Shown here piece by piece: positions 24,095 through 42,030 of a DNA stretch of 64,000 bases. The position numbers and the translations under genes were made by a program. Within the stretch, counting starts at the first letter, position 1, and each line of letters starts with the position of its first letter. This DNA is from Gudongella sp. (lineage in GTDB: Bacteria > Bacillota > Clostridia > Tissierellales > Tissierellaceae), in NCBI GenBank assembly GCA_024649995.1, contig JANKMX010000002.1, positions 9,446 to 73,445 on the forward strand, read 5' to 3'. A model generated the notes under the pieces. That model was not told where the DNA came from, ran no database searches, and saw only the letters and a list, made by a program, of their open reading frames with translations.

Positions 24095-24163
24095 AGAAAC
24101 TGGAAAAGATCAAGCAGGCTCAAAGGTGAGGCTGCTTGATTTCTAAATCAGGGGAGGATTGCC

Positions 24164-25951: not shown

Positions 25952-25975
25952 TAGGTTTTGTAAAGGAGGAGAAAG

Positions 25976-26488
25976 ATGGATTTTTTGGTGCTTGAAAGAT
26001 GGTCGCCCTATGTTGTGGGGGTTCTGATCGGATTACTGAATGTTGTCTCACTACTTGTCTCAAAGAAGCCTCTGGGGGCTTCCACAAGCTTTATGAAGCT
26101 TGGAGGGATAATCTACAGGTCCTTTGACAAGGAAAAGGTTCAAAACAACGAATATTATCAAAAGAATGAATTGAAGCTTGACTGGGGCATGATGCTGGTA
26201 CTGGGGATAATCATTGGAGCCTTCATATCGGCAATGCTTTCAGGGGATTTCAATCTTATTGCTGTTCCTAGCATGTGGGCCAATGAGATTTCAGGTAGCT
26301 TTCTGCTAAGGTTCTTTTCTGCTGTTCTGGGTGGAATTTTCCTTGGTGTAGGAGCCAGATGGGCTGGTGGCTGCACCAGTGGACATGGAATAAGTGGAAC
26401 CAGTTTTCTTTCGGTTATCAGTTGGGTGGCTGGAATCGCATTCTTTATTGGCGGTATAGCTGTGGCCTTCCTCATATACGGAATGTAG
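25976..26488 (+). CDS. YeeE/YedE-family sulfur-compound transporter, first half
   Basis: Conserved GGCTSGHG motif, 170 aa, 4 TM helices. Confidence 0.8.
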   Translation: MDFLVLERWSPYVVGVLIGLLNVVSLLVSKKPLGASTSFMKLGGIIYRSFDKEKVQNNEYYQKNELKLDWGMMLVLGIIIGAFISAMLSGDFNLIAVPSMWANEISGSFLLRFFSAVLGGIFLGVGARWAGGCTSGHGISGTSFLSVISWVAGIAFFIGGIAVAFLIYGM

Positions 26489-26499
26489 GGGTGATTAAA

Positions 26500-27045
26500 A
26501 TGGCAAAGAATAATAGAACCCTCATGCAGGGACTTATAATAGGGATATTCTTCGGTTTCTTTCTCCAGAAGGGAGGGGTCACCAAGTATGATGTTATTGT
26601 TGGACAGCTGAGGCTCATTGATTTTACGGTAATAAAAATCATCCTTACTGCAATCGTAGTTTCCATGCTGGGAATAAGCTATTTTTATCCCAAGGACATG
26701 CTTCCAGTCAAAACCAAGGCTGGTTCAATCAAAAATGCAACAATAGGTGGACTCCTGTTTGGTGTTGGCTTTGGTCTACTTGGCTATTGTCCTGGCACAA
26801 TAGCAGGCGCCATCGGTAATGGCTACATTGATGCAGTTACAGGAGGACTGATCGGGATCGTTCTTGGAACCATGATCTATGCAATGATCTATGGGAAATT
26901 GAAGGAAAAGGGAGTTCTGACACAGGATAAGTACAGTGAATATAGTCTTTTCCACCATATGAAGGGCAGCCCCTTTAAGGTGACAATACCATTTGGGGCG
27001 ATCATTGTTGCTGTGCTTTTCATAATGGAAATGGGTGGACTGTAG
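26500..27045 (+). CDS. YeeE/YedE-family sulfur-compound transporter, second half
   Basis: The ATG at 26500 (MAKNNRTL) lies 11 nt after the previous stop. Contains the LLGYCPGT motif. Confidence 0.8.
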   Translation: MAKNNRTLMQGLIIGIFFGFFLQKGGVTKYDVIVGQLRLIDFTVIKIILTAIVVSMLGISYFYPKDMLPVKTKAGSIKNATIGGLLFGVGFGLLGYCPGTIAGAIGNGYIDAVTGGLIGIVLGTMIYAMIYGKLKEKGVLTQDKYSEYSLFHHMKGSPFKVTIPFGAIIVAVLFIMEMGGL

Positions 27046-27073
27046 AGGCGAGAAATTTCGCCTCTTTATCTTT
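27045..27073 (+). terminator. Terminator-like hairpin between the YeeE/YedE pair and the reductase gene
   Basis: GAGGCGA gaaatt TCGCCTC followed by TTTATCTTT. It could act as an attenuator because an RBS and gene follow directly. Confidence 0.5.
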
Positions 27074-27089
27074 GGAAGGAGAGGATTAG

Positions 27090-28433
27090 ATGAATCAAGA
27101 GGTTGTAATCATAGGAGGAGTTGCAGCAGGAATGAGCTGTGCGGCAAAGCTATCCAGAGAAGACCCTGAAGCCAGAATAACAGTATATGAGAAGGGGAAA
27201 CACATCTCCTACGGAGCCTGTGGGTTGCCCTACTATATTGGTGATGTGATTGAGGACCACCATAGACTTGTGGTAAAGGAACCAAAGGATTTTGAAGATA
27301 CCAATGTGGATGTTAGGATTATGCACCAGGTGACAAAGGTCCTACCAGAAGAGAAGAAGGTAGTGGTAAAGAACCTTGAAACGGGAGAGAAATTTGAAAA
27401 GGATTACCACAAGCTTGTAATTGCCACTGGAGCTGAGCCGGTTAAGCCTCCCTTTGTGGATGAAAGCGTGGGGAATGTATTTACCCTAAGAACAGTGGAG
27501 GACGGACAGAGGATCAAGAAGGCAGCTTTATCAGATAAGGTTGAGAGGGTCGTTCTAATCGGAGCAGGCTACATCGGTCTTGAGCTGGTTGAATCATTTC
27601 ATAATCTTGGAAAGCAGATTTCTGTGATCAATCGGTCAGCAAACATCATGAAGCCTGTTGACCAGGAAATAAGAGAGATCCTCATAAAGGAACTGAAGGA
27701 CAAAGAAATTGAGCTTAATTTCAATGAAGAGGTAGATAAGATAATACAGGATGAGGATGGTATGGTCAAGACAGTTGTTACCGACAAGGGTGAACACCCA
27801 GCAGATCTTGTTGTGGTTGCAATTGGTGTTGCTCCAGCCACCAGGTTTCTTGAGGGAACGGGAATTGATACCCTTAGGAATGGGGCCATTGTAATCAACG
27901 ACAGGATGGAGACCAATTTAGAGGGCATTTATGCAGCTGGCGACTGTGCAACCCTTTACCACAGAATCCTCGGAAAGAATGTCCACATACCCCTTGCCAC
28001 CTATGCAAACAGGCAGGGGAGACTTCTTGGTGAAATCCTCTCCGGAAAGGACAGTAGCTTTCCTGGAGGGATTGGCGCATCTGTTGTAAAGATTTTGGAC
28101 ATCACCATAAGCGCCACTGGAGTAAACGAGAAGCAGGCAAAGGATGGAGAGCTTGATTATGAGACCGAGTTCATAAAGGGCTACAGCAATGCAGGCTACT
28201 ACCCGGGGAGCAAGCCCTTGTATGTAAAGTACATCTATGACAAGAAGACCAAGGTTCTTTTGGGAGCCCAGCTTGCAGGTGAAAAGGGAGCACAGCACAG
28301 GATTGATGCACTTTCAATAGCGATTGATAAGGGCTTGACTTTAAGAGAGCTTGCCTACAGTGATTTTGCATACACTCCTCCATATTCAGGAGCATGGGAT
28401 CCTCTTCAGGTTGCAGCAAATGTTGCTGAGTAA
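27090..28433 (+). CDS. CoA-disulfide reductase / NADH-oxidase-family flavoprotein (single redox Cys)
   Basis: GGVAAGMS FAD-binding fold, redox Cys in SYGACGLPYYIG, and a second Rossmann fold LIGAGYIGLE. Confidence 0.8.
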   Translation: MNQEVVIIGGVAAGMSCAAKLSREDPEARITVYEKGKHISYGACGLPYYIGDVIEDHHRLVVKEPKDFEDTNVDVRIMHQVTKVLPEEKKVVVKNLETGEKFEKDYHKLVIATGAEPVKPPFVDESVGNVFTLRTVEDGQRIKKAALSDKVERVVLIGAGYIGLELVESFHNLGKQISVINRSANIMKPVDQEIREILIKELKDKEIELNFNEEVDKIIQDEDGMVKTVVTDKGEHPADLVVVAIGVAPATRFLEGTGIDTLRNGAIVINDRMETNLEGIYAAGDCATLYHRILGKNVHIPLATYANRQGRLLGEILSGKDSSFPGGIGASVVKILDITISATGVNEKQAKDGELDYETEFIKGYSNAGYYPGSKPLYVKYIYDKKTKVLLGAQLAGEKGAQHRIDALSIAIDKGLTLRELAYSDFAYTPPYSGAWDPLQVAANVAE

Positions 28434-28472
28434 TATAAAGATTCTGGGGAATATATAGATAGAGGTGAATAT

Positions 28473-29588
28473 ATGGACAACAGAGATTACAAGGAGCTTA
28501 CAAAAAAAGAAAAATTGGGACGGCAAAAGGAAATCTGGAAGCTTTTCACCAAGCTGGGCTTTCTTGCCTTTGGTGGTCCTGCTGCCCATATAGCCATGCT
28601 TGAGACGGAGGCCATTGAAAAGAAGAAATGGCTCCAGCGGGAAAGATTTATGGACTTTATGGGAGCGACCAATATTATTCCAGGGCCAAATTCAACAGAG
28701 ATGGTCATGCTGGTTGGATATGAAAGGGGAGGAATACCTGGACTTTTTGTTGCTGGAGGGGCCTTTATCATTCCTGCCATGCTGTTGGTTTTAATGTTTG
28801 GGGTTATGTATGTTACCTACGGGTCTCTTCCTGAGCTGACAACGGTTCTTGATGGGGTCAAGGCTGTTATCATGGCCGTCATTGTCAATGCCCTCTACAG
28901 ACTTTTCAGAAATGTAATCAAAAGCAAGGAGGCACTATTCTTTGGTGTGGCAATAGCTGCTGTGTACCTGCTTGGTGTTGGAGAAATACCGCTTCTATTC
29001 ACCGCAGGTGTCCTTATGATGCTATGGAAGAACAAGGACAGGATTACTGGGAAAACCTACTCCCTGGCACTACCGATGATTTTTTTGACCTTCCTGAAAA
29101 TCGGAGCGGTTCTCTATGGTAGTGGCTATGTACTGCTGGCATTCTTGGAGGCTGAATTTGTTGAGACACTGGGTGTTCTAACAGAGCAGCAGATTCTTGA
29201 TTCAGTGGCTGTTGGACAGTTCACACCTGGTCCTGTGTTCACCACTGCAACCTTCATAGGATATGTATTGGGAGGATTTCCGGGAGCGGTCCTTGCCACC
29301 ATAGGAATATTCCTGCCTGCCTTTATACTGGTTATATTCCTTAAGCCCCTGATCTACAAGCTCAGGGAAAACAAATGGCTCTCAGGTGCCCTGGATGGTG
29401 TAAACATAGCATCCTTGGTTCTTATGGCAGTGGTAAGTGTAAAGCTTGGCTTGTCATCCATAATAAGTGTTACAACAGCATTGATTTTCATTGGAGGCAT
29501 GGTTGGAATTATGAAGTACAACATCAACACCGCCTGGCTGATAATTGCAGGAGGGACAATAAACTGGATAGTTCAAACGATCATATGA
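28473..29588 (+). CDS. chrA: Chromate-ion-transporter (CHR) family protein, fused two-domain form
   Basis: FGGPAAHIAM in the first half and GQFTPGPVFTTATFIGY in the second half. Confidence 0.85.
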   Translation: MDNRDYKELTKKEKLGRQKEIWKLFTKLGFLAFGGPAAHIAMLETEAIEKKKWLQRERFMDFMGATNIIPGPNSTEMVMLVGYERGGIPGLFVAGGAFIIPAMLLVLMFGVMYVTYGSLPELTTVLDGVKAVIMAVIVNALYRLFRNVIKSKEALFFGVAIAAVYLLGVGEIPLLFTAGVLMMLWKNKDRITGKTYSLALPMIFLTFLKIGAVLYGSGYVLLAFLEAEFVETLGVLTEQQILDSVAVGQFTPGPVFTTATFIGYVLGGFPGAVLATIGIFLPAFILVIFLKPLIYKLRENKWLSGALDGVNIASLVLMAVVSVKLGLSSIISVTTALIFIGGMVGIMKYNINTAWLIIAGGTINWIVQTII

Positions 29589-29613
29589 AAAGAACCCCTG
29601 AGGGTTCTTTTTT
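29589..29613. terminator. Bidirectional terminator
   Basis: AAAGAACCC ctga GGGTTCTTT followed by TTT. Confidence 0.8.
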
Positions 29614-30283
29614 AGTATAAACCATAGGTTGAATCAATGTCCTGCACGAATATAATTCCATTGCCTGGTTCATCTATTTTCATATCAGTGCTTATGGATG
29701 ATACTATTCCATCCGTAAGATCCCCTTTGGAGATGATCAGTACTATTTCCTTTTCAGGTTCAATTTCCATTCCAAAAACCTTGCTGGTCTCATGTATTCC
29801 TGAGCCCCTTCCGTTTATAATGGTGGCACCTCTTGAACCTGCCTTGTTTGCCGCATCGACAACCATCTCTCCTTTTCCTTTATCCACTATCGATATCACA
29901 AGATTGTAATCTGCCACCTTCTCACCTCTTTCAACGTTATCATTGCATTTCATTGCCTTGGTACCGAAAATTCCACTGATGGAAGTGCTAAAGGCAATTC
30001 CATGATTTGGTTTCCTGAAATTGAACCTTCTGTCCAGTTCTTCAAGTGTAGCCCTGGAGGTGTTGGAATCAGAAGCCATCAGGACAATCTCCTTCCTTGC
30101 CTCGTTAATTCCAAGAAATTCAAGAAGCTGGTTTTTGATTGTGCCAGTTCCCAAAAGGACCGTTCCCCCGCTGACGCCCTGCTTTTTGGCATGCTTCATT
30201 ATCTTGCTGGCCATACCATAATTGACAATCACTGTAATAAGATTTATTTCATCAAAGCAATTTCTGTCATTGATCACTTTCAA
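29612..30283 (-). CDS. Tandem P-II (GlnB-like) domain protein
   Basis: Two repeats: LITVIVNYGMASKIMKHAKKQGVSGGTVLLGTG and LVISIVDKGKGEMVVDAANKAGSRGATIINGRG. It overlaps the upstream membrane gene by 17 nt. Confidence 0.7.
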   Translation of the reverse strand: MKVINDRNCFDEINLITVIVNYGMASKIMKHAKKQGVSGGTVLLGTGTIKNQLLEFLGINEARKEIVLMASDSNTSRATLEELDRRFNFRKPNHGIAFSTSISGIFGTKAMKCNDNVERGEKVADYNLVISIVDKGKGEMVVDAANKAGSRGATIINGRGSGIHETSKVFGMEIEPEKEIVLIISKGDLTDGIVSSISTDMKIDEPGNGIIFVQDIDSTYGLY

Positions 30284-31757
30284 CCCCCTCCTTTCCAGAA
30301 TTCATACTGAAGAACAAGCCTAGTATCTGTAGGGTCAAAATCGGCATAAGTGCAACCATTGCAATCATCCCAAAGCCATCCAAAAGTATATCCGCCCATG
30401 GTATGGCCTCAGCTGCCCCCTGTGTGAAGGCAAGGATGAAGGTTGCAGTCATTGGACCTGTGGCAACCCCTCCGGCATCAAAGGCCATACCCACAAACAG
30501 CTTTGGGACAATGTAGCTAAGGCCGATTGAAAGGGCATATCCCGGCAGAAGATAATGCCATAGCTGAATTCCCGGGACCACAATCCTAAGCATTGAAAGA
30601 CCAATTGCCAATCCTCCACCCAGAGCCAGGGCAGTAAGAACAGCTCTCCTTTTGACGTAGCCGCTGGTTACCTCCTCAATCTGATGTGTAAGTACATAGA
30701 CCGCAGGCTCTGCCAGCATGGTCACAATTCCCAAGATAGTTCCCATGAGGATGAGAAAATAGTAGCTGTCCCGGGATGCCAGGGTATAGCCGATGATGGT
30801 TCCGACATTCATGAATCCTCCGTTTACACCCGTCATAAATAGTACCAAGCCCAGGAATGAATAGACAAATCCCTTAAGTAGCCTCCCGAAGGCCTTCTTC
30901 TCCAATTTGAAGCTTGCCTTTTGCAGGAATACAAGTATGATTAGCAAAGGGGCAAGTGATAGGATGCTTTCTCTTGTTATGCTTGAGAGCTGGGAAGAGA
31001 AGGGGTCAAATAATGACTGGGTTTGGGGCATCTGAAAGGCTATTGTTGAGCTGAGTTCACCGGTGTCCGAAAAGATGCTTAGAATCATCACAGACATTAT
31101 GGCTCCCACAGATGCAATCGATACCAGCCCAAAGCTGTCCTTCTCTCCAGCCTTACTGTCCTTCTTAAGAGCAGATACACCAACTGAAAGTGCCAGTATA
31201 AATGGAACTGCAAGGATTCCTGTCGTAGCTCCTGATGTGTCAAAGGCTATTGTCAAAAGCTGGGACGGTGTAAATATTGCCAGAAGGAATGTAATGCCAT
31301 AGAGTACGGTCAAGACCTTGTAAAGGGGTATGTTATAGACAATCCTCAGCAGTCCAAAAGCTACCATGACGGCAAGACCAAGTGATACAATCACCAATAG
31401 TGTGGTGCTGGTTATACCGCCATCAGTTACGGCATCCACCTGACTTGCTAGGACCATGAGACCGGGCTCAGCTACTGAGATGAGAAAACCCAGGACCAGT
31501 CCTGCCAATACAACAAGAAACACCTTGTTGGAGGCGGAAAGGGTTGCGCCCAGAAGTCTGCCAAGAGGAGCGATTCCAATATCCACACCTATCAGGAACA
31601 GGGTAAGTCCCATCACAATAAGGAAGACGCCCATAATGAAGGTTATGAGCATTGCGCCATCCAAAGGCGTAAGTGTAAAATTGAGCAGTATAACTATTAT
31701 GGTTATTGGAAGCACCGACAGGGAAACTTCCTTGAATTTATCCAGCAATAGGTTCAT
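30267..31757 (-). CDS. DUF1538-like polytopic membrane protein
   Basis: 496 aa and about 12 TM helices. The N-terminus and the P-II partner match my recollection of the DUF1538 / P-II pairing. Confidence 0.6.
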   Translation of the reverse strand: MNLLLDKFKEVSLSVLPITIIVILLNFTLTPLDGAMLITFIMGVFLIVMGLTLFLIGVDIGIAPLGRLLGATLSASNKVFLVVLAGLVLGFLISVAEPGLMVLASQVDAVTDGGITSTTLLVIVSLGLAVMVAFGLLRIVYNIPLYKVLTVLYGITFLLAIFTPSQLLTIAFDTSGATTGILAVPFILALSVGVSALKKDSKAGEKDSFGLVSIASVGAIMSVMILSIFSDTGELSSTIAFQMPQTQSLFDPFSSQLSSITRESILSLAPLLIILVFLQKASFKLEKKAFGRLLKGFVYSFLGLVLFMTGVNGGFMNVGTIIGYTLASRDSYYFLILMGTILGIVTMLAEPAVYVLTHQIEEVTSGYVKRRAVLTALALGGGLAIGLSMLRIVVPGIQLWHYLLPGYALSIGLSYIVPKLFVGMAFDAGGVATGPMTATFILAFTQGAAEAIPWADILLDGFGMIAMVALMPILTLQILGLFFSMNSGKEGVESDQ

Positions 31758-31889
31758 TTACTCACGTCCATTTTTATCCTAAACGACCTTCAGGTCATCT
31801 GAATAGTTATATACCCAAGTTCCTCCATAAGTACCAAAGGAATGATATAATTTGGACAGGTTCATAAATTCATTGTTAAAATCAAAAAC

Positions 31890-31903
31890 GTAACATTTGT
31901 TAC
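31890..31903. promoter_or_regulatory. Perfect palindrome GTAAC-ATTT-GTTAC, candidate Crp/Fnr-type (HcpR-like) operator
   Basis: Read directly from the sequence. Its centre is about 42 nt upstream of the TSS predicted from the -10 TAGAAT at 31927-31932. It has the same half-sites as the site in front of hcp. Confidence 0.65.
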
Positions 31904-31959
31904 TGAATATCTGATATATGTTAGTGTAGAATGTATACAGAGAATAAGGAGGTTTTTTA

Positions 31960-33204
31960 ATGAACAAATACTTTGACCCAAAGGAGAAAGTATACGATAT
32001 AACCGAAAGGTACCCGGAAACACTTGATGTATTTGCAGCAAACGGCTTTGAGCACCTGAAGAATGAGGCCATGCGCAAGGTCATGGGGAAGACAATAAAC
32101 CTTGAAACCGCCTGCAAGACAAAGAAGGTGAACCTTCAGCTTTTTGAGCAGAAGCTTGTGGACGTCATAGAGCAGACCAGGGGCTCTGTTGATGCAACCC
32201 TGAACCAGGCCAGGGAAAACGGCGATGGGGAAGTAAGCATACTTGGAGTTCTTCCATGTCCTGTAAGGATTCCCCTGATGGAAAGCTTTAACAAATGGCT
32301 CCAAGACCATGAAAAGGACCTGGATTACAAAATAGACTATGAACTGAAGGCTGCAAATATTGGAGTGGATTGGATCAGGGAAGAGATGGAGACGGCTTCT
32401 CCTGATGACATAGCTGATCTTTTCATGTCAGCTGGCTTTGACCTTTTCTTTGACGAGAAGCTTATGGGGAAGTTCAAGTCCCAGGGGGTTTTCCAGGATA
32501 TGTCAGGCTTTGAAAGCCTGAATAGGGACTTTGACAATGATAGGATCTCCCTGAAGGACCCAAAAGGCCAGTACACGACACTTGCAGTTGTTCCTGCTGT
32601 TTTTCTTGTAAATACGGAGGAGCTTGACGGACGTCAGATGCCCCTGTCATGGGCTGACCTCCTAAGGGGTGAGTTCGAGAACTCAATATCTCTGCCCCTA
32701 AACGACTTTGACCTATTCAATGCACTCCTGTTGAGCATTCACAAGGAATTTGGGGTGGATGGAATAAGAAGACTTGGGAGGGCTCATATGAGAAGCATGA
32801 CCCCTGCTGAGATGGTAAAATCCAATGTAAGGAACACATCATCAGGGATACCAACCGTTACAGTTATGCCCTATCTATTTGCCAGGATGGTAAGGGAGGA
32901 AAGTCCCCTAAAGCCGGTTTGGCCCAAGGAGGGTGCCGTAATAAGCCCCATTTTCCTTCTCTCAAAGAAGTCCAGCAGGGACAAGGTCAAACCTCTTGTT
33001 GACTATTTCATGTCAAGGGAAGTTGGCCAGATGCTGGCCACAAGCGGAAAGTTCCCCTCCACACATCCAGAGGTTAAGAACGGTCTAACTGATGACCAAG
33101 GCTTCATGTGGATAGGCTGGGATTATATCAATAGCCATCCTGACCTGGGAGCACTGATAAGTGAATTGATGGATATATTCAACGAGGAAGCAGGTGTGAA
33201 ATAG
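31960..33204 (+). CDS. Cytoplasmic periplasmic-binding-protein-like protein with N-terminal DUF1858-like domain
   Basis: No signal peptide. The N-terminal ~70 aa (VYDITERYPETLDVFAANGFEHL...MGKTINLETAC) resemble DUF1858/ScdA_N. The remainder has SBP hallmarks (VVPAVFLVN, SWADLL, ISPIFLL). Confidence 0.65.
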   Translation: MNKYFDPKEKVYDITERYPETLDVFAANGFEHLKNEAMRKVMGKTINLETACKTKKVNLQLFEQKLVDVIEQTRGSVDATLNQARENGDGEVSILGVLPCPVRIPLMESFNKWLQDHEKDLDYKIDYELKAANIGVDWIREEMETASPDDIADLFMSAGFDLFFDEKLMGKFKSQGVFQDMSGFESLNRDFDNDRISLKDPKGQYTTLAVVPAVFLVNTEELDGRQMPLSWADLLRGEFENSISLPLNDFDLFNALLLSIHKEFGVDGIRRLGRAHMRSMTPAEMVKSNVRNTSSGIPTVTVMPYLFARMVREESPLKPVWPKEGAVISPIFLLSKKSSRDKVKPLVDYFMSREVGQMLATSGKFPSTHPEVKNGLTDDQGFMWIGWDYINSHPDLGALISELMDIFNEEAGVK

Positions 33205-33906
33205 ATGAACCTAGTGATTTTCTCTGGTCCCCCCTCATCGGGAAAGACCAGTATAATACTGAAGACAATTGAGGCAATGAGGAAAAGGGACCTTCAGGTG
33301 GGAGTAGTTAAGTTCGACTGCCTCAGCACTGATGATGACATCCTTTACGAAAAGGCAGGAATACCTGTAAAGAAGGGTCTTTCAGGAGCACTTTGCCCGG
33401 ACCACTACTTTGCCTCAAATATCGAGGAGGTTGTGCAGTGGGGCAGAAGAAGGGGCCTGGACCTGCTGATCACAGAATCAGCAGGACTTTGCAACAGGTG
33501 TTCGCCCTATATCAAATCCATAAAGGGAGTCTGCGTAATTGACAACCTTTCAGGCATAAACACACCCAAAAAGATAGGGCCTATGCTCAAGGCTGCAGAT
33601 ATTGTCGTGATAACAAAGGGGGATATCGTGTCCCAGGCTGAAAGGGAGGTATTTGCATCAAAGGTGAACTCCGTCAATCCAAAGGCCATGACTATGCACA
33701 TTAACGGACTGACCGGCCAGGGAGCATTTGAATTGAGCACTCTGCTTTATGATGAGGATGAGAATCTGGAGTCTGTGACAGGAATGGAGCTTAGGTATCC
33801 CATGCCATCGGCACTTTGCTCCTACTGTCTTGGAGAGACTAGGATCGGAGACGATTTCCAGATGGGCAATGTTAGAAAGATTGAGCTGGGTGATATGGAT
33901 GAGTAG
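33205..33906 (+). CDS. HypB/UreG-like G3E P-loop GTPase
   Basis: Walker A GPPSSGKTS, CPDH, ESAGLCNRCSP (compare HypB ENVGNLVCP) and TKGD in place of NKxD. The start abuts the previous stop. Confidence 0.7.
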   Translation: MNLVIFSGPPSSGKTSIILKTIEAMRKRDLQVGVVKFDCLSTDDDILYEKAGIPVKKGLSGALCPDHYFASNIEEVVQWGRRRGLDLLITESAGLCNRCSPYIKSIKGVCVIDNLSGINTPKKIGPMLKAADIVVITKGDIVSQAEREVFASKVNSVNPKAMTMHINGLTGQGAFELSTLLYDEDENLESVTGMELRYPMPSALCSYCLGETRIGDDFQMGNVRKIELGDMDE

Positions 33907-33907
33907 G

Positions 33908-34891
33908 ATGACAATTAATAAGATACTTGAGAAATACCCCTTTGCAATGAGTTATTTTGTGGAGAACAAGCTGGATGTAGAGAATCACAAAGAAAAGACC
34001 TTCCAGGAATTCCTGGATGGCTTCACCCATGAAGAGGTAGAGGACCTGGCCATGGACAAGGAGGAACTCGCTGAAAACCTTGAGATTTTCATAGATCAGA
34101 TGAAGGAGTTTCTTGGAATCAAGGAGGAGGTTGGAGTCAGGTCGCTGACAATCCTGCCAGGGTTCGATAAATCAGGAAGTCCCGAGGGCTTCAATGAGCT
34201 TACAATAAGCACATCACAGGTGATTTCAATAGTTGGACCAACCGGAGCAGGAAAGTCTAGGCTGCTGGCTGACATTGAGTGGACCGCACAGAAGGATACA
34301 CCAACAGGAAGAAGCATACTGATAAATGATGAGCTTCCAGACAAGAAATGGAGGTTTTCATCAAACAACAAGCTCGTAGCCCAGCTTTCCCAGAATATGA
34401 ACTTTGTCATGGACCTGACTGTAATGGAGTTTCTTCAGCTTCATGCTGAAAGCAGGCTGGTGGAGGATGTTGAAGGGACAATCCAAAGGATAATAAGGGC
34501 AGCCAACAGCCTGGCAGGAGAGAAGTTCCAGCTGGACACTCCAGTTACAGCCCTGAGCGGAGGTCAGTCAAGAGCCCTTATGATAGCAGATACTGCAATA
34601 CTGAGCTCATCACCAATAGTCCTTATAGATGAAATTGAGAATGCCGGAATAGACAGACGGAAAGCACTAAACCTATTGATTGACGAGGACAAGATTGTCC
34701 TTATGGCAACACACGACCCCACATTGGCTCTGATTGCAGACAAGAGGATAATCATCAAAAACGGTGGAATAGCAAAGATTATCGAGACTACAGAAGAGGA
34801 AAAGGAGATCCTCCTCAAGCTTGAAAAGATGGATACCTACATCCAGGACATGAGATCAAGTCTGAGAAACGGTAAAACCCTTAGTGTATAA
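33908..34891 (+). CDS. Orphan ABC ATPase with ~90-aa N-terminal extension
   Basis: GPTGAGKS, LSGGQ, VLIDE and ATHD. The ATG at 33908 lies 1 nt after the previous stop. There is no permease gene in the operon. Confidence 0.75.
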   Translation: MTINKILEKYPFAMSYFVENKLDVENHKEKTFQEFLDGFTHEEVEDLAMDKEELAENLEIFIDQMKEFLGIKEEVGVRSLTILPGFDKSGSPEGFNELTISTSQVISIVGPTGAGKSRLLADIEWTAQKDTPTGRSILINDELPDKKWRFSSNNKLVAQLSQNMNFVMDLTVMEFLQLHAESRLVEDVEGTIQRIIRAANSLAGEKFQLDTPVTALSGGQSRALMIADTAILSSSPIVLIDEIENAGIDRRKALNLLIDEDKIVLMATHDPTLALIADKRIIIKNGGIAKIIETTEEEKEILLKLEKMDTYIQDMRSSLRNGKTLSV

Positions 34892-34936
34892 GTGAAAGCA
34901 TATAAACCAGTGGAAAATAATAGGAGGAATAATATT

Positions 34937-35179
34937 ATGCATGACGGATGTACAGGAAGCTTTGGAAGCGGCGAGGCAGTGGTGGACAAGATAAGGGCGA
35001 TGGGCTTCAACACAAGGCCTATGCCACCAGGAGTTACAATAACCTGCATAGAATGCGGAAATGACTTTGATATGACCCACCTTGAGACTAAATGCCCAAG
35101 CTGTGAAATGGTATACGGAGTTACCCCATGTTCAACAGCTTATCCCGAAAGAATCAAGGCTGCAGGGAAAAATTATTGA
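34937..35179 (+). CDS. Small zinc-ribbon protein (80 aa)
   Basis: The ATG follows a strong AGGAGG. Contains CIEC...CPSC plus additional Cys residues. Confidence 0.55.
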   Translation: MHDGCTGSFGSGEAVVDKIRAMGFNTRPMPPGVTITCIECGNDFDMTHLETKCPSCEMVYGVTPCSTAYPERIKAAGKNY

Positions 35180-35216
35180 TTTATTCCTGACTTGGGAAAA
35201 GAGACTAATTACGATG

Positions 35217-35250
35217 AATTCCCCTACTTAGAAAATAGGGGAATTTTTTT
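35217..35250 (+). terminator. Rho-independent terminator closing the four-gene module
   Basis: AATTCCCCT...AGGGGAATT followed by TTTTTTT. Confidence 0.85.
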
Positions 35251-35269
35251 CTGCCTTTTTCAACCATTG

Positions 35270-35283
35270 GTAACATGTGTTAC
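35270..35283. promoter_or_regulatory. Perfect palindrome GTAAC-ATGT-GTTAC upstream of hcp, candidate HcpR-type operator
   Basis: Read directly from the sequence. Its centre is about 41.5 nt upstream of the TSS predicted from the extended -10 TGTTATCAT (35303-35311). Confidence 0.7.
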
Positions 35284-35369
35284 GGTGTCCTTGCTGTAAA
35301 AATGTTATCATGGGTCTTGTGAGTTACATGAAACGACTGTAAATAACAATTGGAAAGGATGATTTTTAA

Positions 35370-37055
35370 ATGGTTGAAAGACAAAGTGGACATTCTATGT
35401 TTTGCTACCAGTGCCAGGAAGCGGCAGGTGGAAAAGGATGTACAAAGGTGGGTATGTGTGGAAAGACCAGTGAGGTTGCAAATCTTCAGGACCTTATGAT
35501 ATATGGACTTAAAGGACTTTCAGAGGTTGGCCTGAAGGCTGACGAAATTGGATACAGGATGGAAGGTCTTGACAGACTAATAATTGAAGGCCTATTCATG
35601 ACAATCACAAATGCAAACTTCGATAAGGACAGATTCTTTGAAGGTATAAAGCTTGTACTGAAAAAGAGGGATGAACTGAAATCAGTACTTAAGGAAAAAG
35701 GTGTGGATCTCGGAGAATTGAAGGATGCAGCTACATTTGCAGTAAACAGCAACGATGAGATAGTGTTCAAGTCAAACAGCGAAGAGGTTAGTATACTTGC
35801 AACAGAAAACGAAGATGTGAGATCACTCAGGGAATTGATTATCTACGGCCTGAAGGGAATGGCGGCATATGCTGAGCACGCTGACAATCTTGGATTCCAG
35901 GATGAAGAAATTTCAAAATTCATAAGAAAAGCACTTGTTGCAACCATGGATGACAGCCTGACAGCAGATGACCTTGTTGCCCTTACACTTGAGACAGGTA
36001 ACTACGGAGTTCAGACAATGGCACTTTTGGACAAGGCAAACACCTCAACCTATGGAAATCCTGAAATAAGTGAAGTAAACATAGGAGTCAGAAATAATCC
36101 TGCCATCCTTGTATCAGGACATGACCTGAAGGATTTCGAAGAGCTTCTGGAGCAGACAAAGGACAGTGGAGTTGACATTTACACACATGGTGAGATGCTT
36201 CCAGCAAACTACTACCCAACCTTCAAGAAGTATGAGCACTTTGTAGGAAACTACGGGAACTCATGGTGGATGCAGAAGGAAGAGTTTGACAAGTTCAACG
36301 GAGCCATCCTATTCACTACAAACTGTATTGTGCCTCCAAAGGCAGACTATGCTGACAGGGTTTACACAACCGGATCATCAGGATACCCAGGCTTCAAGCA
36401 CATTCCAGACAGAGTTGACGGACAGCCAAAGGATTTCTCAGAGGTGATTGAGCATGCCAAGAGACTTCCAGCACCTACTGAAATAGAGACGGGCAAGATT
36501 GTTGGAGGATTCGCTCACGCACAGGTATTTGCATTGGCAGACAAGGTGGTTGAGGCAGTGAAGACCGGAGCAATCAGAAAGTTCTTCGTAATGGCAGGCT
36601 GTGATGGAAGACAGGGCAAGAGAAGCTACTACACTGAGTTTGCAGAGGCTCTTCCAAAGGACACAGTCATCCTTACAGCTGGATGTGCAAAGTTCAGATA
36701 CAACAAGCTTAACCTTGGAGACATCAATGGAATTCCAAGAGTACTGGATGCAGGACAGTGTAACGACTCGTATTCACTGGCTGTGATTGCAATGAAGCTA
36801 AAGGAGATATTCGAGCTAAATGACATCAACGACCTTCCAATTGCATACAACATAGCATGGTACGAGCAGAAGGCAGTTATTGTGCTGTTGGCACTTCTGT
36901 CACTTGGAGTCAAGAACATTCACCTTGGACCTACATTGCCGGCATTCCTTTCACCAAATGTAGCAAAGGTTCTTGTTGAAACATTTGGAATAGGTACAAT
37001 ATCAGATGTTGAAAACGACATCAACATGTTCTTGGGTGAAGCAGCAAACGCATAA
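35370..37055 (+). CDS. hcp: Hybrid-cluster protein (hydroxylamine reductase / NO-stress protein)
   Basis: N-terminal Cys cluster [22 protein letters not shown]. About 560 aa, collinear with Hcp. Confidence 0.95.
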
Positions 37056-38219: not shown

Positions 38220-39419
38220 ATGTTTACCAATTGGCTACTTAAAAAATTTCTAAAGGATGATATAAACTACAAGGACCCTGGAACCAGAAGAAGTGTAGGT
38301 TATCTTGCTGGGATTGTTGGGGTTATTGTCAATATATTGCTTACAATAGTAAAGATAACAATAGGATTTCTTATATCTTCAATTGGGGTTGTGGCTGACG
38401 GGGTGAACAATTTGGCCGATTCCGCATCATCAATAGTCACTCTTGTAGGCTTCAGGATTTCAGGGAGGCCTGCCGACAAGGAGCACCCATATGGACATGG
38501 AAGGGTGGAGTACATCTCTGCCATGATAGTGGCCTTTATGGTAATAATTGTGGGGGTCCAATTTATCCGCTCCTCAATTGAAAGGATTATTGAACCCAAG
38601 GCTGTGGAGTTTGAAATTGTAACCTTCTCCATACTTGTGGTCTCAATTCTTTTCAAGGTTTGGCTTGCAATATTCAACAGAGACCTTGGAAATAGGATTG
38701 ATTCCAAAGGCTTGAAGGCTACGGCAACGGATGCCATGGGAGATGTTCTTATAACCTCGGTGGTTGTAGTATCAATTCTGGTCAGTCAGTTCACAACACT
38801 TCCCGTGGATGGGGTTGTTGGAGTAATTGTATCCCTGTTCATAATTTTTGCAGGCTACAATCTTGTCAAGGAGACCATGAGTCCCCTGATTGGTGAAGCT
38901 CCACCTGAAGGGATGATTCAGGGAATTTATGAGGATATAATGAAGTACAGATACATCACTGGAGCTCATGACCTGATTATCCACACCTACGGGGCAGGCA
39001 GGACCATGGCAACCATAGATGTTGAGTTTCCAGCGTCAATAGATGTCATCACAATACATGATGTCATAGACCAGGCAGAGAGGGACCTGGGTGATAAGTA
39101 TGACATGACCCTTGTCATCCATATGGATCCACTTGGACCTGAAAGTGAAGAGAGGTACCAGCTGAGGCAGAAGGTTAAGAGAATCATCAGGGCAGATGAC
39201 AGGGTTCACTCAATTCATGACTTTCATATATTGGAGGAGGGCAAGGAAAAAACCGTCGAATTTCATGTGGTGGTGACTGATGGAAAGCTTACAGGGGACC
39301 GGGATTATCATGGCCTAAAGCAGGAGCTTGAAAAGGCTGTTGATGACGAAATCGAGGGCTTTGGTTGCAGAATAATTCTTGATATAGATTTTCATGGGGA
39401 GAGAGAAAATGACATATAA
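38220..39419 (+). CDS. Cation diffusion facilitator (CDF) metal efflux protein
   Basis: Six TM helices with the DxxxD/HxxxD-type context (ADGVNNLADS, ATDAMGDVLIT) and a cytoplasmic C-terminal domain. Confidence 0.85.
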   Translation: MFTNWLLKKFLKDDINYKDPGTRRSVGYLAGIVGVIVNILLTIVKITIGFLISSIGVVADGVNNLADSASSIVTLVGFRISGRPADKEHPYGHGRVEYISAMIVAFMVIIVGVQFIRSSIERIIEPKAVEFEIVTFSILVVSILFKVWLAIFNRDLGNRIDSKGLKATATDAMGDVLITSVVVVSILVSQFTTLPVDGVVGVIVSLFIIFAGYNLVKETMSPLIGEAPPEGMIQGIYEDIMKYRYITGAHDLIIHTYGAGRTMATIDVEFPASIDVITIHDVIDQAERDLGDKYDMTLVIHMDPLGPESEERYQLRQKVKRIIRADDRVHSIHDFHILEEGKEKTVEFHVVVTDGKLTGDRDYHGLKQELEKAVDDEIEGFGCRIILDIDFHGERENDI

Positions 39420-40695
39420 CGAAAAAATAAATATGATAGAAAACTATATAAGAAGCGGTGAAAAAAAGAGAGAAAATTTCAGGGTAGGAGTTGAAATGGA
39501 GCATTTTGTAATCTGGGAGGATTCTCTTAAGACAGTGTCATACTATGGTGAGAATGGCGTTGAGGAAATCCTCAAGGAGCTATTGCCAAACGGCTGGAAG
39601 GGGACCTATGAAGGGGACCATCTCCTTGGACTTAGGAAGGATGATATTGCAATAACCCTTGAGCCTGGAAGTCAGCTGGAGGTGAGCATAGATTCAGCCA
39701 GAGATATAAGGGATCTTGAAAGGGGTTACCTGGCTTTTTTAGCTGAAGTCATCCCTCTATTGGAAAAGAGGAATCAGGTCCTGGTAACCCTAGGCTATCA
39801 TCCGGTCACAAGGATTGAAGAAATAAAGCTACTTCCCAAGAAGAGATATGATCTCATGTTCACCCATTTCAAGACCAAGGGTTCACATGCACACAACATG
39901 ATGAAGGGAACCGGAGCATTCCAGGTAGCCATTGATTATTGTGACGAGGAGGATTACAGTAAGAAATTCAGAGTGCTTAACGCTCTGGCTCCTGTTTTTT
40001 ACGGCATTTTTGAAAATGCACTCTTCTTTGAGGGGGAGCCCTGCAAAACCCATAACCTCAGGGCCTATGTCTGGATGAACTGCGACAACGACAGGGCAGG
40101 AATTGTGGAAGGAGCCTTGGGGGATAAATTCGGATACAGGGATTATGCCAGGTATGTTCTTGAAAGGCCACCAATATTCACTGTTCGAAACGGTGAGATA
40201 ATAGCCACGGGAGAGAATAGGGTAAAGGATATCCTAGACCCTGGAACTACCGGAATGGATGAGCTTGACCACCTTATGACCATGTTCTTTCCCGATGTGA
40301 GAACAAAAAAATATCTTGAAATAAGAATGATGGATTCAATTCCTTATCCTTTGAACTTCTCAGCGGTCGCACTGATTAAGGGACTTTTCTATGATCAGGC
40401 CAACCTGGATAAGCTGGTTGATTTTGTTGGTCATATTAGCATTGATAAGGTAGAGAATACAAAGATGGAGATGCTGGAGAAGGGAATGGAGGCCATGCTA
40501 AATGGAAAGACACTTCTTCAAATTGGAAGTTGGCTTCTGGAGCTTTCCAGAGAAGGACTGGCCCTGGAGGAGAGACCATACCTAAAGCCTTTGGAGGACC
40601 TTCTCATGCAGGGGAAGAACCCATACATCCATACAAGGGACAGATTCAAGAATGGTGATAGAAAATTTGCAATTGAATGGGCAATGCACAGATAA
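39409..40695 (+). CDS. Glutamate--cysteine ligase-like enzyme (GCS family)
   Basis: N-terminal FRVGVEMEHFV and ITLEPGSQLEVS are typical of gamma-glutamylcysteine synthetases. The start overlaps the CDF stop; an alternative ATG is at 39394. Confidence 0.65.
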   Translation: MTYNEKINMIENYIRSGEKKRENFRVGVEMEHFVIWEDSLKTVSYYGENGVEEILKELLPNGWKGTYEGDHLLGLRKDDIAITLEPGSQLEVSIDSARDIRDLERGYLAFLAEVIPLLEKRNQVLVTLGYHPVTRIEEIKLLPKKRYDLMFTHFKTKGSHAHNMMKGTGAFQVAIDYCDEEDYSKKFRVLNALAPVFYGIFENALFFEGEPCKTHNLRAYVWMNCDNDRAGIVEGALGDKFGYRDYARYVLERPPIFTVRNGEIIATGENRVKDILDPGTTGMDELDHLMTMFFPDVRTKKYLEIRMMDSIPYPLNFSAVALIKGLFYDQANLDKLVDFVGHISIDKVENTKMEMLEKGMEAMLNGKTLLQIGSWLLELSREGLALEERPYLKPLEDLLMQGKNPYIHTRDRFKNGDRKFAIEWAMHR

Positions 40696-40707
40696 TGAGG
40701 TGAAGCT

Positions 40708-42030
40708 ATGACAGGTGAAAAGTATCAAGAGATGTACCTGGAAATGGTTCTGGAAAACCAGGAAAGGTATAAGGATGATTATAAGAAGACTGTGGAGAGG
40801 GTAGCCAACTCCACTGCTATATACAAGAACAAGCCGGTACCATTTCTATACAATCCAATGTTCTTTTCGGAAAGTGAGGAGGAAGACCTCAGGTGGATTG
40901 GAAAGATGATGATGGATATTGGCGAGAGTATAACTGACAGGTATATTCGTGATGAGGAGTTCAGGAAAAAGTTTGGTTTCCCGGATTTTATCGAGAGGAT
41001 GATTCTTAGGGACAACAGGTATGGAGTCCATGTACCAGTAGCCAGATTTGACGTTTTCTACAGGGACAGGGAAAACTTCAAGTTCTGTGAACTGAACACA
41101 GATGGGTCCTCGGCCATGAACGAGGACAATACCATTGGCGGGATACTCCTTAGATCAAGAGCCATGGAGGATTTTATCAGGGAACATCCTGTAAGAAATC
41201 CTGAGCTGATCAAGAGCTGGGTTAGGGAAAGCATTAAGATTTACCGAAAGTGGGATGAGACAGGAAAGAAACCCAATGTGGCCATTGTTGACTTTACTGA
41301 AAGTGGAACTTCGGCTGAATTTCAACTCTTTAAGGAAACCTATGAAAATGAGGGTTACAGTTGCATCATAGCAGATCCGAGAGATCTCCAGTACAGGGAT
41401 GGAGGTCTTTATCATCAGAACTACAGGATTGACCTTGTGTATAGAAGAATTGTGACCTTTGAGCTTATAGAGAAATTTTATCAGGCGGATGAATTTGTCA
41501 AGGCCTATATGGATGATGCGGTCTGTGTGGTTGGAACAATAAGGTCCCAAGTGATTCATAACAAGATTTTCTTCAAGATACTCCACAACCAGGATACGCT
41601 GGATGGTTTGAGGGAGGATCAAAGGGAATTCATCCGAAAGCATATTCCATTTACAGGTCTATTCAAAGGGGAAGAGGAAGTGTTTCAGGAGGTCCTTAAT
41701 AACAAGAACAGATACATCATTAAACCCATGGATATGAATGCATCACAGGGTGTTTATCCAGGAAGGGATTTTAAGGAGGAAAGGTGGGAATCCATACTGA
41801 GGGACACCTTCAACAGGGATTATATCTACCAGGAATTTATAGACCCATATAAGAGAGAATTTGTCGTCTATGAAGACGGAAGGTTCAGGGGAGAGCGTTT
41901 GGGATCCATTGTAGGGATATTCATGTACAACAGAAATTACAGTGGACTATATACAAGGCTTGGCAGGAACAATATCATATCCGGGGTTACTGATTACTAC
42001 TGTGCTCCAAATATGATCGTACAGACGTAG
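40708..42030 (+). CDS. ATP-grasp ligase resembling the glutathionylspermidine-synthase (pre-ATP-grasp) family
   Basis: RFDVFYRDRENFKFCELNTDGSSAMNE parallels the RFDF...EYNADTP motif of that family. It lies 12 nt downstream of the ligase gene. Confidence 0.5.
   Translation: MTGEKYQEMYLEMVLENQERYKDDYKKTVERVANSTAIYKNKPVPFLYNPMFFSESEEEDLRWIGKMMMDIGESITDRYIRDEEFRKKFGFPDFIERMILRDNRYGVHVPVARFDVFYRDRENFKFCELNTDGSSAMNEDNTIGGILLRSRAMEDFIREHPVRNPELIKSWVRESIKIYRKWDETGKKPNVAIVDFTESGTSAEFQLFKETYENEGYSCIIADPRDLQYRDGGLYHQNYRIDLVYRRIVTFELIEKFYQADEFVKAYMDDAVCVVGTIRSQVIHNKIFFKILHNQDTLDGLREDQREFIRKHIPFTGLFKGEEEVFQEVLNNKNRYIIKPMDMNASQGVYPGRDFKEERWESILRDTFNRDYIYQEFIDPYKREFVVYEDGRFRGERLGSIVGIFMYNRNYSGLYTRLGRNNIISGVTDYYCAPNMIVQT

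Follow-up and report, generated by a model that had tools for sequence, protein, structure and literature searches.

A predicted HcpR2-regulated operon next to hcp in Gudongella sp. as a candidate cytoplasmic system for metal or cluster handling

What is the role of four genes that lie directly ahead of hcp, which encodes the hybrid cluster protein (Hcp), in Gudongella sp., and that encode a binding-protein-like protein, a GTPase, an ATP-binding cassette (ABC) ATPase and a small cysteine-rich protein with no permease beside them? We refer to these genes and their products as A, B, C, and D, and to the 64,000 nucleotides analysed (assembly GCA_024649995.1, contig JANKMX010000002.1, positions 9,446 to 73,445) as the window. 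The proteins are currently annotated just as “ABC transporter substrate-binding protein” and “GTP-binding protein”. We found no description of an A-B-C-D operon in the searched literature, in which generic gene names in transcriptome tables could conceal an incidental mention. The repair of metal centres by strict anaerobes after nitric oxide (NO) damage is poorly understood, as are the building and upkeep of the Hcp hybrid cluster. With moderate confidence, we read A-B-C-D as a single, putatively HcpR2-activated operon parallel to hcp, whose products would form a cytoplasmic machine with two nucleoside triphosphatases (NTPases) that handles a metal or cluster under nitrosative stress and is not a transporter. 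The sequence comparisons speak for one operon under predicted HcpR2 control, for a cytoplasmic location without a permease, for conserved metal-ligand residues, and for a coupling of B with C.

Two exact GTAAC-N4-GTTAC palindromes were detected in the window, one upstream of A and one upstream of hcp (Table 1), and these remained the only sites when one mismatch was allowed. Shuffled sequences, scanned with one mismatch allowed, gave at least two matches in 15 of 100 cases. Because shuffles match this often, the two sites in a single window are not significant alone, and comparative evidence carries the regulon argument. Rodionov et al. (2005, PMC1274295) gave this palindrome as the consensus of HcpR2, which belongs to the Crp/Fnr family and regulates hcp in Clostridia, Thermotogales, and Bacteroides. 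Its sites have been published at −19 to −163 relative to the start codon (PMC1274295), and both operators of the window fall within this range.

The comparison covered the 80 best-matching species-representative loci encoding an A homologue, 77 of which were usable for the operator scan; the counts for individual genes given below refer to loci with enough contig flank. An exact site was present upstream of A in 53 of the 77 loci, at a distance of 54–190 nt and in one case 350 nt. The only other exact sites in these loci of ≈19 kb were those upstream of hcp, found in almost every locus that bears this gene. A second motif, GTTG-N6-CAAC, occurred at −90 to −147 upstream of A in 18 further loci (Lachnospiraceae, Oscillibacter), with a total of just 23 sites in 307 kb. 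One or the other operator type was counted in 73 of the 77 loci. The motif fits a variant profile, nTGTTGnAnnTnCAACAn, that was ascribed to the HcpR2 of C. thermocellum (PMC1274295). In three Oscillibacter loci (among L056, L058, L059, L064, and L072), another GTTG-N6-CAAC was observed ≈8 kb upstream, at the 3′ end of an open reading frame (ORF).

The regulators themselves offered a further view of the two operator types. According to the published specificity rule, the operator type tracks a Pro or Ser residue at CRP position 181 of the regulator (PMC1274295). A Crp/Fnr gene (cNMP_binding and HTH_Crp_2 domains) was located beside the operon in seven loci. Both regulators adjacent to GTAAC-type operons showed RPSL, with Pro at 181 (RPSL spanning CRP positions 180–181), and all five adjacent to GTTG-type operons showed DRS[AS]L or ERSAL, with Ser at 181. 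The regulator residue thus pairs with the operator type as the published rule states. A tblastn search of the 64 kb, with a module-adjacent Crp/Fnr protein as the query, found no hcpR in the window.

As for promoter geometry, 64 of 73 A promoters and 41 of 41 hcp promoters have a −10-like hexamer whose first base is exactly 29 nt right of the operator centre, and this spacing would place the operator centre at −41.5, the position of a class II activator. A sigma-70-like promoter match at 31853–31882 was rejected, as the operator would fall downstream of its −10 box and the conserved box is better supported. The preliminary description of this DNA had tied the genes to hcp and nitrosative stress; the predicted HcpR2 operator and class II geometry common to both make this link stronger than was claimed. 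Judged from these comparisons, the predicted membership of A-B-C-D in the HcpR2 regulon is well supported. The module matches the published regulon in operator consensus, operator position, and the pairing of regulator residue with operator type (PMC1274295). The members given there are hcp, frdX, hcpR, dnrN, permeases, and a small number of hypothetical genes, not A-B-C-D (PMC1274295); the operon is therefore a newly predicted member, and appears to be a core HcpR target. HcpR protects C. difficile against NO (PMC12915319), and is reported to activate hcp upon NO exposure (PMC12750200).

Table 1. Coordinates of the genes and predicted regulatory elements in the window.
Feature	Position	Strand	Description
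Predicted HcpR2 operator of A-B-C-D, GTAACATTTGTTAC	31890-31903		exact GTAAC-N4-GTTAC, 70 nt upstream of A
Predicted −10 box TAGAAT of the A promoter	31927-31932	+	sequence reading; starts 30 nt right of the operator centre
Gene A	31960-33204	+	414 aa; DUF1858 + SBP_bac_6, without signal peptide
Gene B	33205-33906	+	233 aa; cysteine-rich G3E GTPase, HypB/UreG type
Gene C	33908-34891	+	327 aa; membrane-free ABC ATPase, N-terminal DUF1858-like domain
Gene D	34937-35179	+	80 aa; MH[DE]GC start, rubredoxin-like CxxCG...CPxC knuckle
Intrinsic terminator of the A-B-C-D operon	35216-35251	+	11-bp stem (35216-35246), then U7 run
Predicted HcpR2 operator of hcp, GTAACATGTGTTAC	35270-35283		exact GTAAC-N4-GTTAC, 100 nt upstream of hcp
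Predicted −10 box TATCAT (TG-n-TATCAT) of hcp	35306-35311	+	starts 29 nt right of the operator centre
hcp (hybrid cluster protein / hydroxylamine reductase)	35370-37055	+	NF003658 852 bits; Prismane family E 1.6e-177

The gene layout was read from the ORF list with its translations, and protein domains were assigned by Pfam and NCBIfam profile searches. The ATG of B abuts the stop codon of A, C follows B after 1 nt, and the 45 nt between C and D contain a Shine-Dalgarno sequence. The terminator stands after D and ahead of hcp, with a folding free energy (dG) of −13.7 kcal/mol and z = −2.9. The preliminary description had reported four tightly packed same-strand genes closed by a strong terminator, together with the motifs GPPSSGKTS, CPDH, ESAGLCNRCSP, TKGD, VVPAVFLVN, and SWADLL. 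The ORF list agrees with that layout, the homologues back the start codons, the stem and U run were recovered, and every motif was found. A longer ORF for C with a TTG start at 33830 was rejected, as homologue matches begin at residues 1–3 of the protein that starts at 33908. An upstream GTG start for D at 34892 was likewise excluded, because nearly all of the 241 homologue clusters share a length of 80 aa and begin with MH[DE]GC.

The arrangement recurs widely. The A family covers at least 469 GTDB species, and the 80 loci come from Tissierellia, Lachnospiraceae, Oscillibacter, and Peptostreptococcaceae, plus a single record that bears the label Pelosinus. The gene right after A is B in 76/76 loci, and the gene right after B is C in 75/75, an arrangement far beyond chance. 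Furthermore, two independent natural in-frame fusions, P0363 (509 aa) and P0364 (613 aa), join a complete B to a complete C. This Rosetta-stone evidence suggests that GTPase and ATPase form a single working unit and implies physical coupling. P0418, a candidate A-B fusion, was discarded since its sequence decays into low-complexity, frameshift-like text. The co-occurrence of the four genes, which the preliminary description had put forward as a module next to hcp, is thus invariant for A-B-C and partial for the remainder, with D present in 41 of 66 loci and hcp within 9 kb of the module in 27 of the 48 loci with enough flank.

Could the module then be dedicated to Hcp? A maturase of this kind would assemble or repair the [4Fe-2S-2O] hybrid cluster, as CooC/CooJ/CooT serve the C-cluster of carbon monoxide dehydrogenase (CODH). 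The gene hcp is directly downstream here and in most Tissierellia loci, and shares its operator and promoter geometry with the module. Hcp belongs to the Prismane/CODH family, whose Ni-CODH members are reported to depend on dedicated metallochaperones. Against this stand the loci without hcp within 9 kb, and the Lachnospiraceae and Oscillibacter loci of the set showed no hcp close to the module. E. coli and Desulfovibrio, which are not known to have genes of this kind, make active Hcp. In addition, for C. acetobutylicum, C. perfringens, C. botulinum, C. tetani, Thermotoga, and Bacteroides, the HcpR2 table has hcp and not the module, a comparison that rests on the published table and not on the genomes of those species (PMC1274295). 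Given the table and the loci without a nearby hcp, a need of Hcp for the module is not established; Hcp is an obvious candidate client that the data do not require, and we consider a dedicated maturase unlikely. We favour a broader role in handling metals or clusters, with Hcp as one possible client.

Among the four proteins, B is the most constrained, with 78–97% identity across the 80 loci, also where A retains only 50–60%; it is 98% identical to a protein of Gudongella sp. SC589, which places the window in a Gudongella-like member of the Tissierellaceae. B matched the cobW/HypB/UreG family (PF02492, E 3.8e-13), and phmmer aligned it with UreG (5xkt, 4hi0) and HypB (2hf8) in the PDB. Its scores against the NCBIfam equivalogs were 53 bits for TIGR00073 hypB (cut-off 121) and 29 bits for TIGR00101 ureG (cut-off 204). 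The segment L-C64-P-D-H67 (CPDH) was aligned onto the G-C-P-H motif of UreG, the Ni site at the dimer interface of that protein. Seven cysteines and one histidine (C39, C64, H67, C96, C99, C110, C205, and C208) are invariant in 76 orthologues, and C64, C96, C99, C205, and C208 are retained in the wider family, down to 28% identity. Among 1.84 billion cluster representatives, B returned just 485 hits with E ≤ 1e-3 (69 with E ≤ 1e-30), and these low numbers indicate that B represents a discrete G3E subfamily. In one B-type GTPase, P0387 (271 aa), the CxxC is followed by a PF04060 domain (“putative Fe-S cluster”) at the C-terminus. Taken together, the sequence features point to B as a HypB/UreG-type G3E GTPase of a distinct subfamily with conserved metal-ligand-type residues. 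The preliminary description had recognised such a GTPase with a Cys-rich region, in agreement with the PF02492 match and the conservation of the cysteines at metal-binding positions.

Protein D adds a second set of potential metal ligands. H2, C5, C37, C40, C53, C56, and C65 are invariant, and the CxxCG...CPxC pattern is rubredoxin-like, implying that either Zn or Fe could be bound. Pfam returned weak zinc-ribbon hits only (HypA 14.6 bits versus a cut-off of 28.9), and the D profile found just generic zinc ribbons (RNA-polymerase, FYVE-type) in the PDB. The AlphaFold2 model reached a predicted local distance difference test score (pLDDT) of 85. Foldseek gave it no significant structural neighbour (best E 0.55), and HypA was not among the matches. 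An MHD or MHE start, followed by the invariant Cys5, is near-universal in D, and its likeness to the Met-His-Glu of HypA holds at the motif level only. The idea of D as a HypA homologue, suggested by MH[DE] and the zinc ribbon, is accordingly rejected as family membership on profile and fold, and HypA is kept as an analogy of role. The earlier reading of D as a CxxC...CxxC zinc ribbon stands for the cysteine knuckle, and D is not a plain ribbon, since it contains six invariant cysteines and the invariant His2.

In protein C, the ABC_tran domain (residues 98–242) is situated behind an extension of ≈95 aa. Across 77 sequences, C keeps the Walker A, Walker B, signature, and H-loop motifs (GPTGAGKS, LSGGQ, DEIENAG, and H269) as well as the Q-loop region, and the protein contains no cysteine. 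The preliminary description had noted all canonical ABC motifs and an N-terminal extension of ≈90 aa, both of which were recovered. No named ATPase family lies close to C (best NCBIfam named-family score, 52 bits). Its best relative in the PDB is EcfA2 (E 6e-10), and CmpC is among the closest solved relatives. The first 22 residues matched DUF1858 weakly in Pfam (E 0.005), and hhalign compared the N-terminal 66 residues with the DUF1858 domain of A at P = 6e-4.

Protein A combines DUF1858 (residues 6–61, E 3.6e-18) with SBP_bac_6 (149–393, E 4e-78). The protein showed no signal peptide, lipobox, or hydrophobic leader, its N-terminus being the DUF1858 domain itself, and it is predicted to be cytoplasmic. 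The family comprises 2376 clusters at 90% identity, and the best 120 all carry DUF1858, SBP_bac_6 or, nearly always, both. The AlphaFold2 model (pLDDT 83.7) consists of a helical DUF1858 domain, a disordered linker (75–88), and a type-II binding-protein fold. These results uphold what had been proposed for the fold and for the lack of a signal peptide or lipobox. The proposed DUF1858/ScdA_N-type N-terminus was confirmed for DUF1858 and not for ScdA_N, which gave no score at E ≤ 0.1.

What might A bind? The nearest structures found by Foldseek were P5PA, Bordetella FbpA, FutA, AfuA, KfuA, and PotD, with 12–17% identity, E values from 5e-14 to 1e-10, and TM-scores of 0.6–0.72 normalised to the target. 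A profile search gave similarly weak scores for binders of pyridoxal phosphate (PLP), polyamines, ferric ions, and 2-aminoethylphosphonate (2-AEP) (E 7e-6 to 5e-4). In both searches, PLP, polyamine, ferric, sugar-phosphate, and 2-AEP binders were equally far from A, and these comparable distances mean that the ligand is not assignable by homology. The sole invariant cysteine of the family is C100, in LPCPVR just after strand β1, which falls at the place of FbpA's first ligand residue. Acidic residues of PotD are matched by D249 and D251 and an aromatic one by Y305, and these PotD residues line the ligand pocket; the tandem-Tyr ferric site is absent from A. Based on these pocket positions of FbpA and PotD, we infer that the ligand of A would be cationic, possibly a metal.

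DUF1858 also occurs in NO-related settings elsewhere. The NnrR-dependent bsl7085 of Bradyrhizobium and DrpB of Thermus, both DUF1858 proteins, are members of NO or N-oxide regulons, and DUF2249 and DUF1858 co-occur in the Thermus nitrate-respiration proteins DrpA/DrpB, which were proposed as nitrate sensors. DUF1858 proteins elsewhere are thus members of NO or N-oxide regulons, which fits the domain context of A. Such precedents also raise the possibility of a sensor or regulatory module, in which A would bind a nitrogen-oxide-related or metal ligand and gate the NTPases to signal or regulate. The cytoplasmic NrtA-like domain of the NrtC/CmpC ATPases provides a precedent in keeping with the kinship of C to CmpC, and a DUF2249 gene is often found directly upstream of A. 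Conversely, the module contains no DNA-binding or other output domain, is itself a predicted regulated target of HcpR, and with two NTPases and ≈13 invariant cysteines over B and D suits metal trafficking better. A sensor role is possible, but we regard it as improbable and less parsimonious than metal trafficking.

A split ABC importer, in which A and C would be the binding protein and ATPase of an uptake system (for iron, for example) with a permease elsewhere, is the least probable reading and one we give very little credence, because the database label of A, its fold nearest to the FbpA, PotD, and AfuA binding proteins, and the complete ABC motifs of C (Q-loop region included) are outweighed by the folded DUF1858 N-terminus without signal peptide or lipobox throughout the family, the GTPase gene always placed between A and C, the B-C fusions, a conserved permease in 0 of 80 loci, and upstream ABC genes that are fused exporters, use no binding protein, and recur in only ≈13 loci. 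The neighbouring ORFs of the 80 loci were clustered and their transmembrane segments counted; a hidden nearby permease was sought, and the candidates were only non-conserved neighbours (paired exporters with fused transmembrane and nucleotide-binding domains (TMD-NBD) in ≈13 loci, ChrA, and others). The preliminary description had stated that no permease is encoded, and we found none in the module and no conserved permease beside it in the other species.

Several genes recur beside the operon without being universal, namely TMD-NBD ABC exporters, ChrA, DJ-1/PfpI, DUF2249, DUF302, and HcpR-type regulators. No hydrogenase, hyp, or ure genes were seen among the annotated recurrent neighbours, annotation having covered part of the neighbour clusters. 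The neighbour set has a metal, redox, and nitrosative-stress flavour. The exporter pairs (575–747 aa, judged by eye to be MsbA/MdlB-like) share the strand of A and precede it (L003, L007, L008, L010, L027, L040, L043, L044, L048, L050, L054, L057, and L061), either adjoining A or 1–2 genes away, and A keeps its own HcpR site in most of these loci. Their presence may be a matter of synteny within lineages or of a functional tie, for instance in the export of thiols or metals. The DUF2249 gene (75–85 aa, E 2e-31) often adjoins A upstream or stands 1–2 genes away, sometimes with DUF302, and was found within three genes upstream of A in L003, L007, L012, L029, L034, L036, and L042. In the Oscillibacter loci L056, L058, L059, L064, and L072, the module is embedded in a metal/oxidative-stress island, with a DtxR/MntR-like regulator (assigned by eye), superoxide dismutase, and Dps upstream and a COG0523/CobW-type GTPase downstream on the opposite strand.

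The preferred reading, a soluble machine for metals or clusters, can be set out as a scheme in which we infer what the substrate is, in which order the proteins pass it on, and which client is served. B would act as a metal- or cluster-carrying insertase with a UreG/HypB-type site at the dimer interface (Cys64-Pro-Asp-His67 with Cys96/Cys99) and an added C-terminal CxxC. D, with its MH[DE]GC start and Cys4 knuckle, would serve B as a small accessory metal-binding partner, in a role like that of HypA or UreE. A might hold the ligand in the cleft between its lobes, where the invariant cysteine and the acidic residues would occupy canonical positions. C would dimerise as an ABC ATPase and act on A and B as an ATP-driven clamp, a role played by SufC in SufBCD and by PhnK/PhnL in the carbon-phosphorus (C-P) lyase complex. 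The DUF1858 and DUF1858-like domains of A and C would probably dock the parts together or onto a common client. Likely clients would be NO-damaged iron-sulfur (Fe-S) or metal proteins, and Hcp possibly among them. The preliminary description had already favoured a soluble, nucleotide-driven metal or cluster machine; the missing permease, the predicted cytoplasmic location of A, and a G3E protein with conserved cysteines support this in part.

More tentatively, the module may be a new machine for the assembly or repair of metallocentres, in which an ABC ATPase and a G3E GTPase, sometimes joined in one polypeptide, act on a cytoplasmic binding-protein-like cradle to capture and reinsert metal or cluster fragments released by NO. 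The targets would be Hcp and other Fe-S enzymes, and the system would be a functional counterpart, in Clostridia, of RIC- and Suf-type repair.

Several observations weigh against the reading of A-B-C-D as one metal- or cluster-handling system tied to hcp. A is equidistant from PLP-, polyamine-, ferric-, and 2-AEP-binding proteins and lacks the tandem-Tyr ferric site. The DUF1858 assignment at the N-terminus of C is weak (hhalign probability 28%). The gene hcp is not always nearby, and the published HcpR2 regulon table for model species has hcp but no such module (PMC1274295). Moreover, D is absent from 25 of 66 loci, and Desulfobacula has a D-like gene (80 aa, 55% identity to D of the window) without A-B-C. 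These two findings indicate that D is neither essential to nor exclusive to the module, and D may be a more general small metal or redox partner protein. The Desulfobacula gene (L081 7896–8138, L082 4462–4704) directly follows genes for the alpha and beta subunits of a 2-oxoacid:ferredoxin oxidoreductase and Pyr_redox_2 genes, and is followed in turn by an ORF of 47–59 aa and a DUF3786 gene.

How does the module relate to systems that are already known? With HypA/HypB and UreE/UreG, B shares the G3E signature of P-loop, ESAG, and TKGD and the Cys-Pro-x-His motif, and the MHD/MHE start and CxxC...CxxC of D are reminiscent of HypA. B differs from HypB and UreG in falling far below the equivalog cut-offs, in the extra invariant C39, C96, and C110, and in the C-terminal CxxC (C205/C208). 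Unlike the GTPase genes of the Hyp and Ure systems, the gene of B is locked between genes for a binding-protein-like protein and an ABC ATPase, and is sometimes fused to the latter.

SufBC2D, which assembles Fe-S clusters, and C-P lyase with PhnK/PhnL are soluble complexes powered by ABC ATPases. C resembles them as an ABC-type ATPase without a membrane partner, encoded with soluble proteins in an operon that is stress-induced, for C by prediction. The differences are that the module has no SufB/SufD or Phn homologues and that C bears a DUF1858-like N-terminal domain. The likeness to RIC/YtfE/ScdA is that of an NO-stress regulon protein with a small N-terminal helical domain. None of the four proteins, however, has a hemerythrin di-iron domain, and ScdA_N gave no score at the threshold above; by these profile criteria, the module is not a member of the RIC family. 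With the periplasmic SBP_bac_6 binders of ferric ions, polyamines, PLP, and 2-AEP, A shares the type-II fold, but it differs from them in its predicted cytoplasmic location, the N-terminal DUF1858 domain, the low identity noted above, and the invariant Cys100.

An anti-phage defence system was also considered and set aside, as PADLOC returned no hits for A, B, and D and only generic ABC/AAA hits for C. The Pfam domain calls agree with the preliminary description, and the profile searches placed none of the four proteins in the characterised HypB, UreG, HypA, or RIC families. The module resembles a hybrid of two kinds of system, G3E metallochaperones (HypAB, UreEG) and soluble assembly systems with an ABC ATPase (SufBCD, PhnK/L), and is a member of none of these.

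The remaining surroundings of the operon in the window deserve a brief record. A divergent pair on the minus strand (29612–31757) codes for a membrane protein with DUF1538 (496 aa) and for a protein of 223 aa whose C-terminal domain is P-II-like; the pair recurs near the module in L006 and L048 (clusters c91/c90) and is otherwise not conserved. Sulfur, thiol, and metal genes are abundant in both flanks, 22736–29588 and 38220–42030. The former contains genes for a metallo-beta-lactamase (MBL)-rhodanese protein, two YeeE/YedE-type sulfur-transport proteins, a pyridine-nucleotide-disulfide oxidoreductase that we read as CoA-disulfide-reductase-like, and ChrA. The latter contains YitT, a cation-diffusion-facilitator exporter, and a GCS2 glutamate-cysteine ligase followed by a glutathionylspermidine-synthase-like gene, a pair that may direct the synthesis of a low-molecular-weight thiol.

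If the proposed reading is true, B and its relatives would define a new subfamily of G3E metallochaperones, and the module would show, for the first time, how a soluble metallochaperone system has co-opted a binding-protein fold together with an ABC ATPase. The widespread mis-annotation of these genes as transporter components would be corrected. For gut and environmental Clostridia, the operon would provide a directly testable locus of defence against nitrosative stress.

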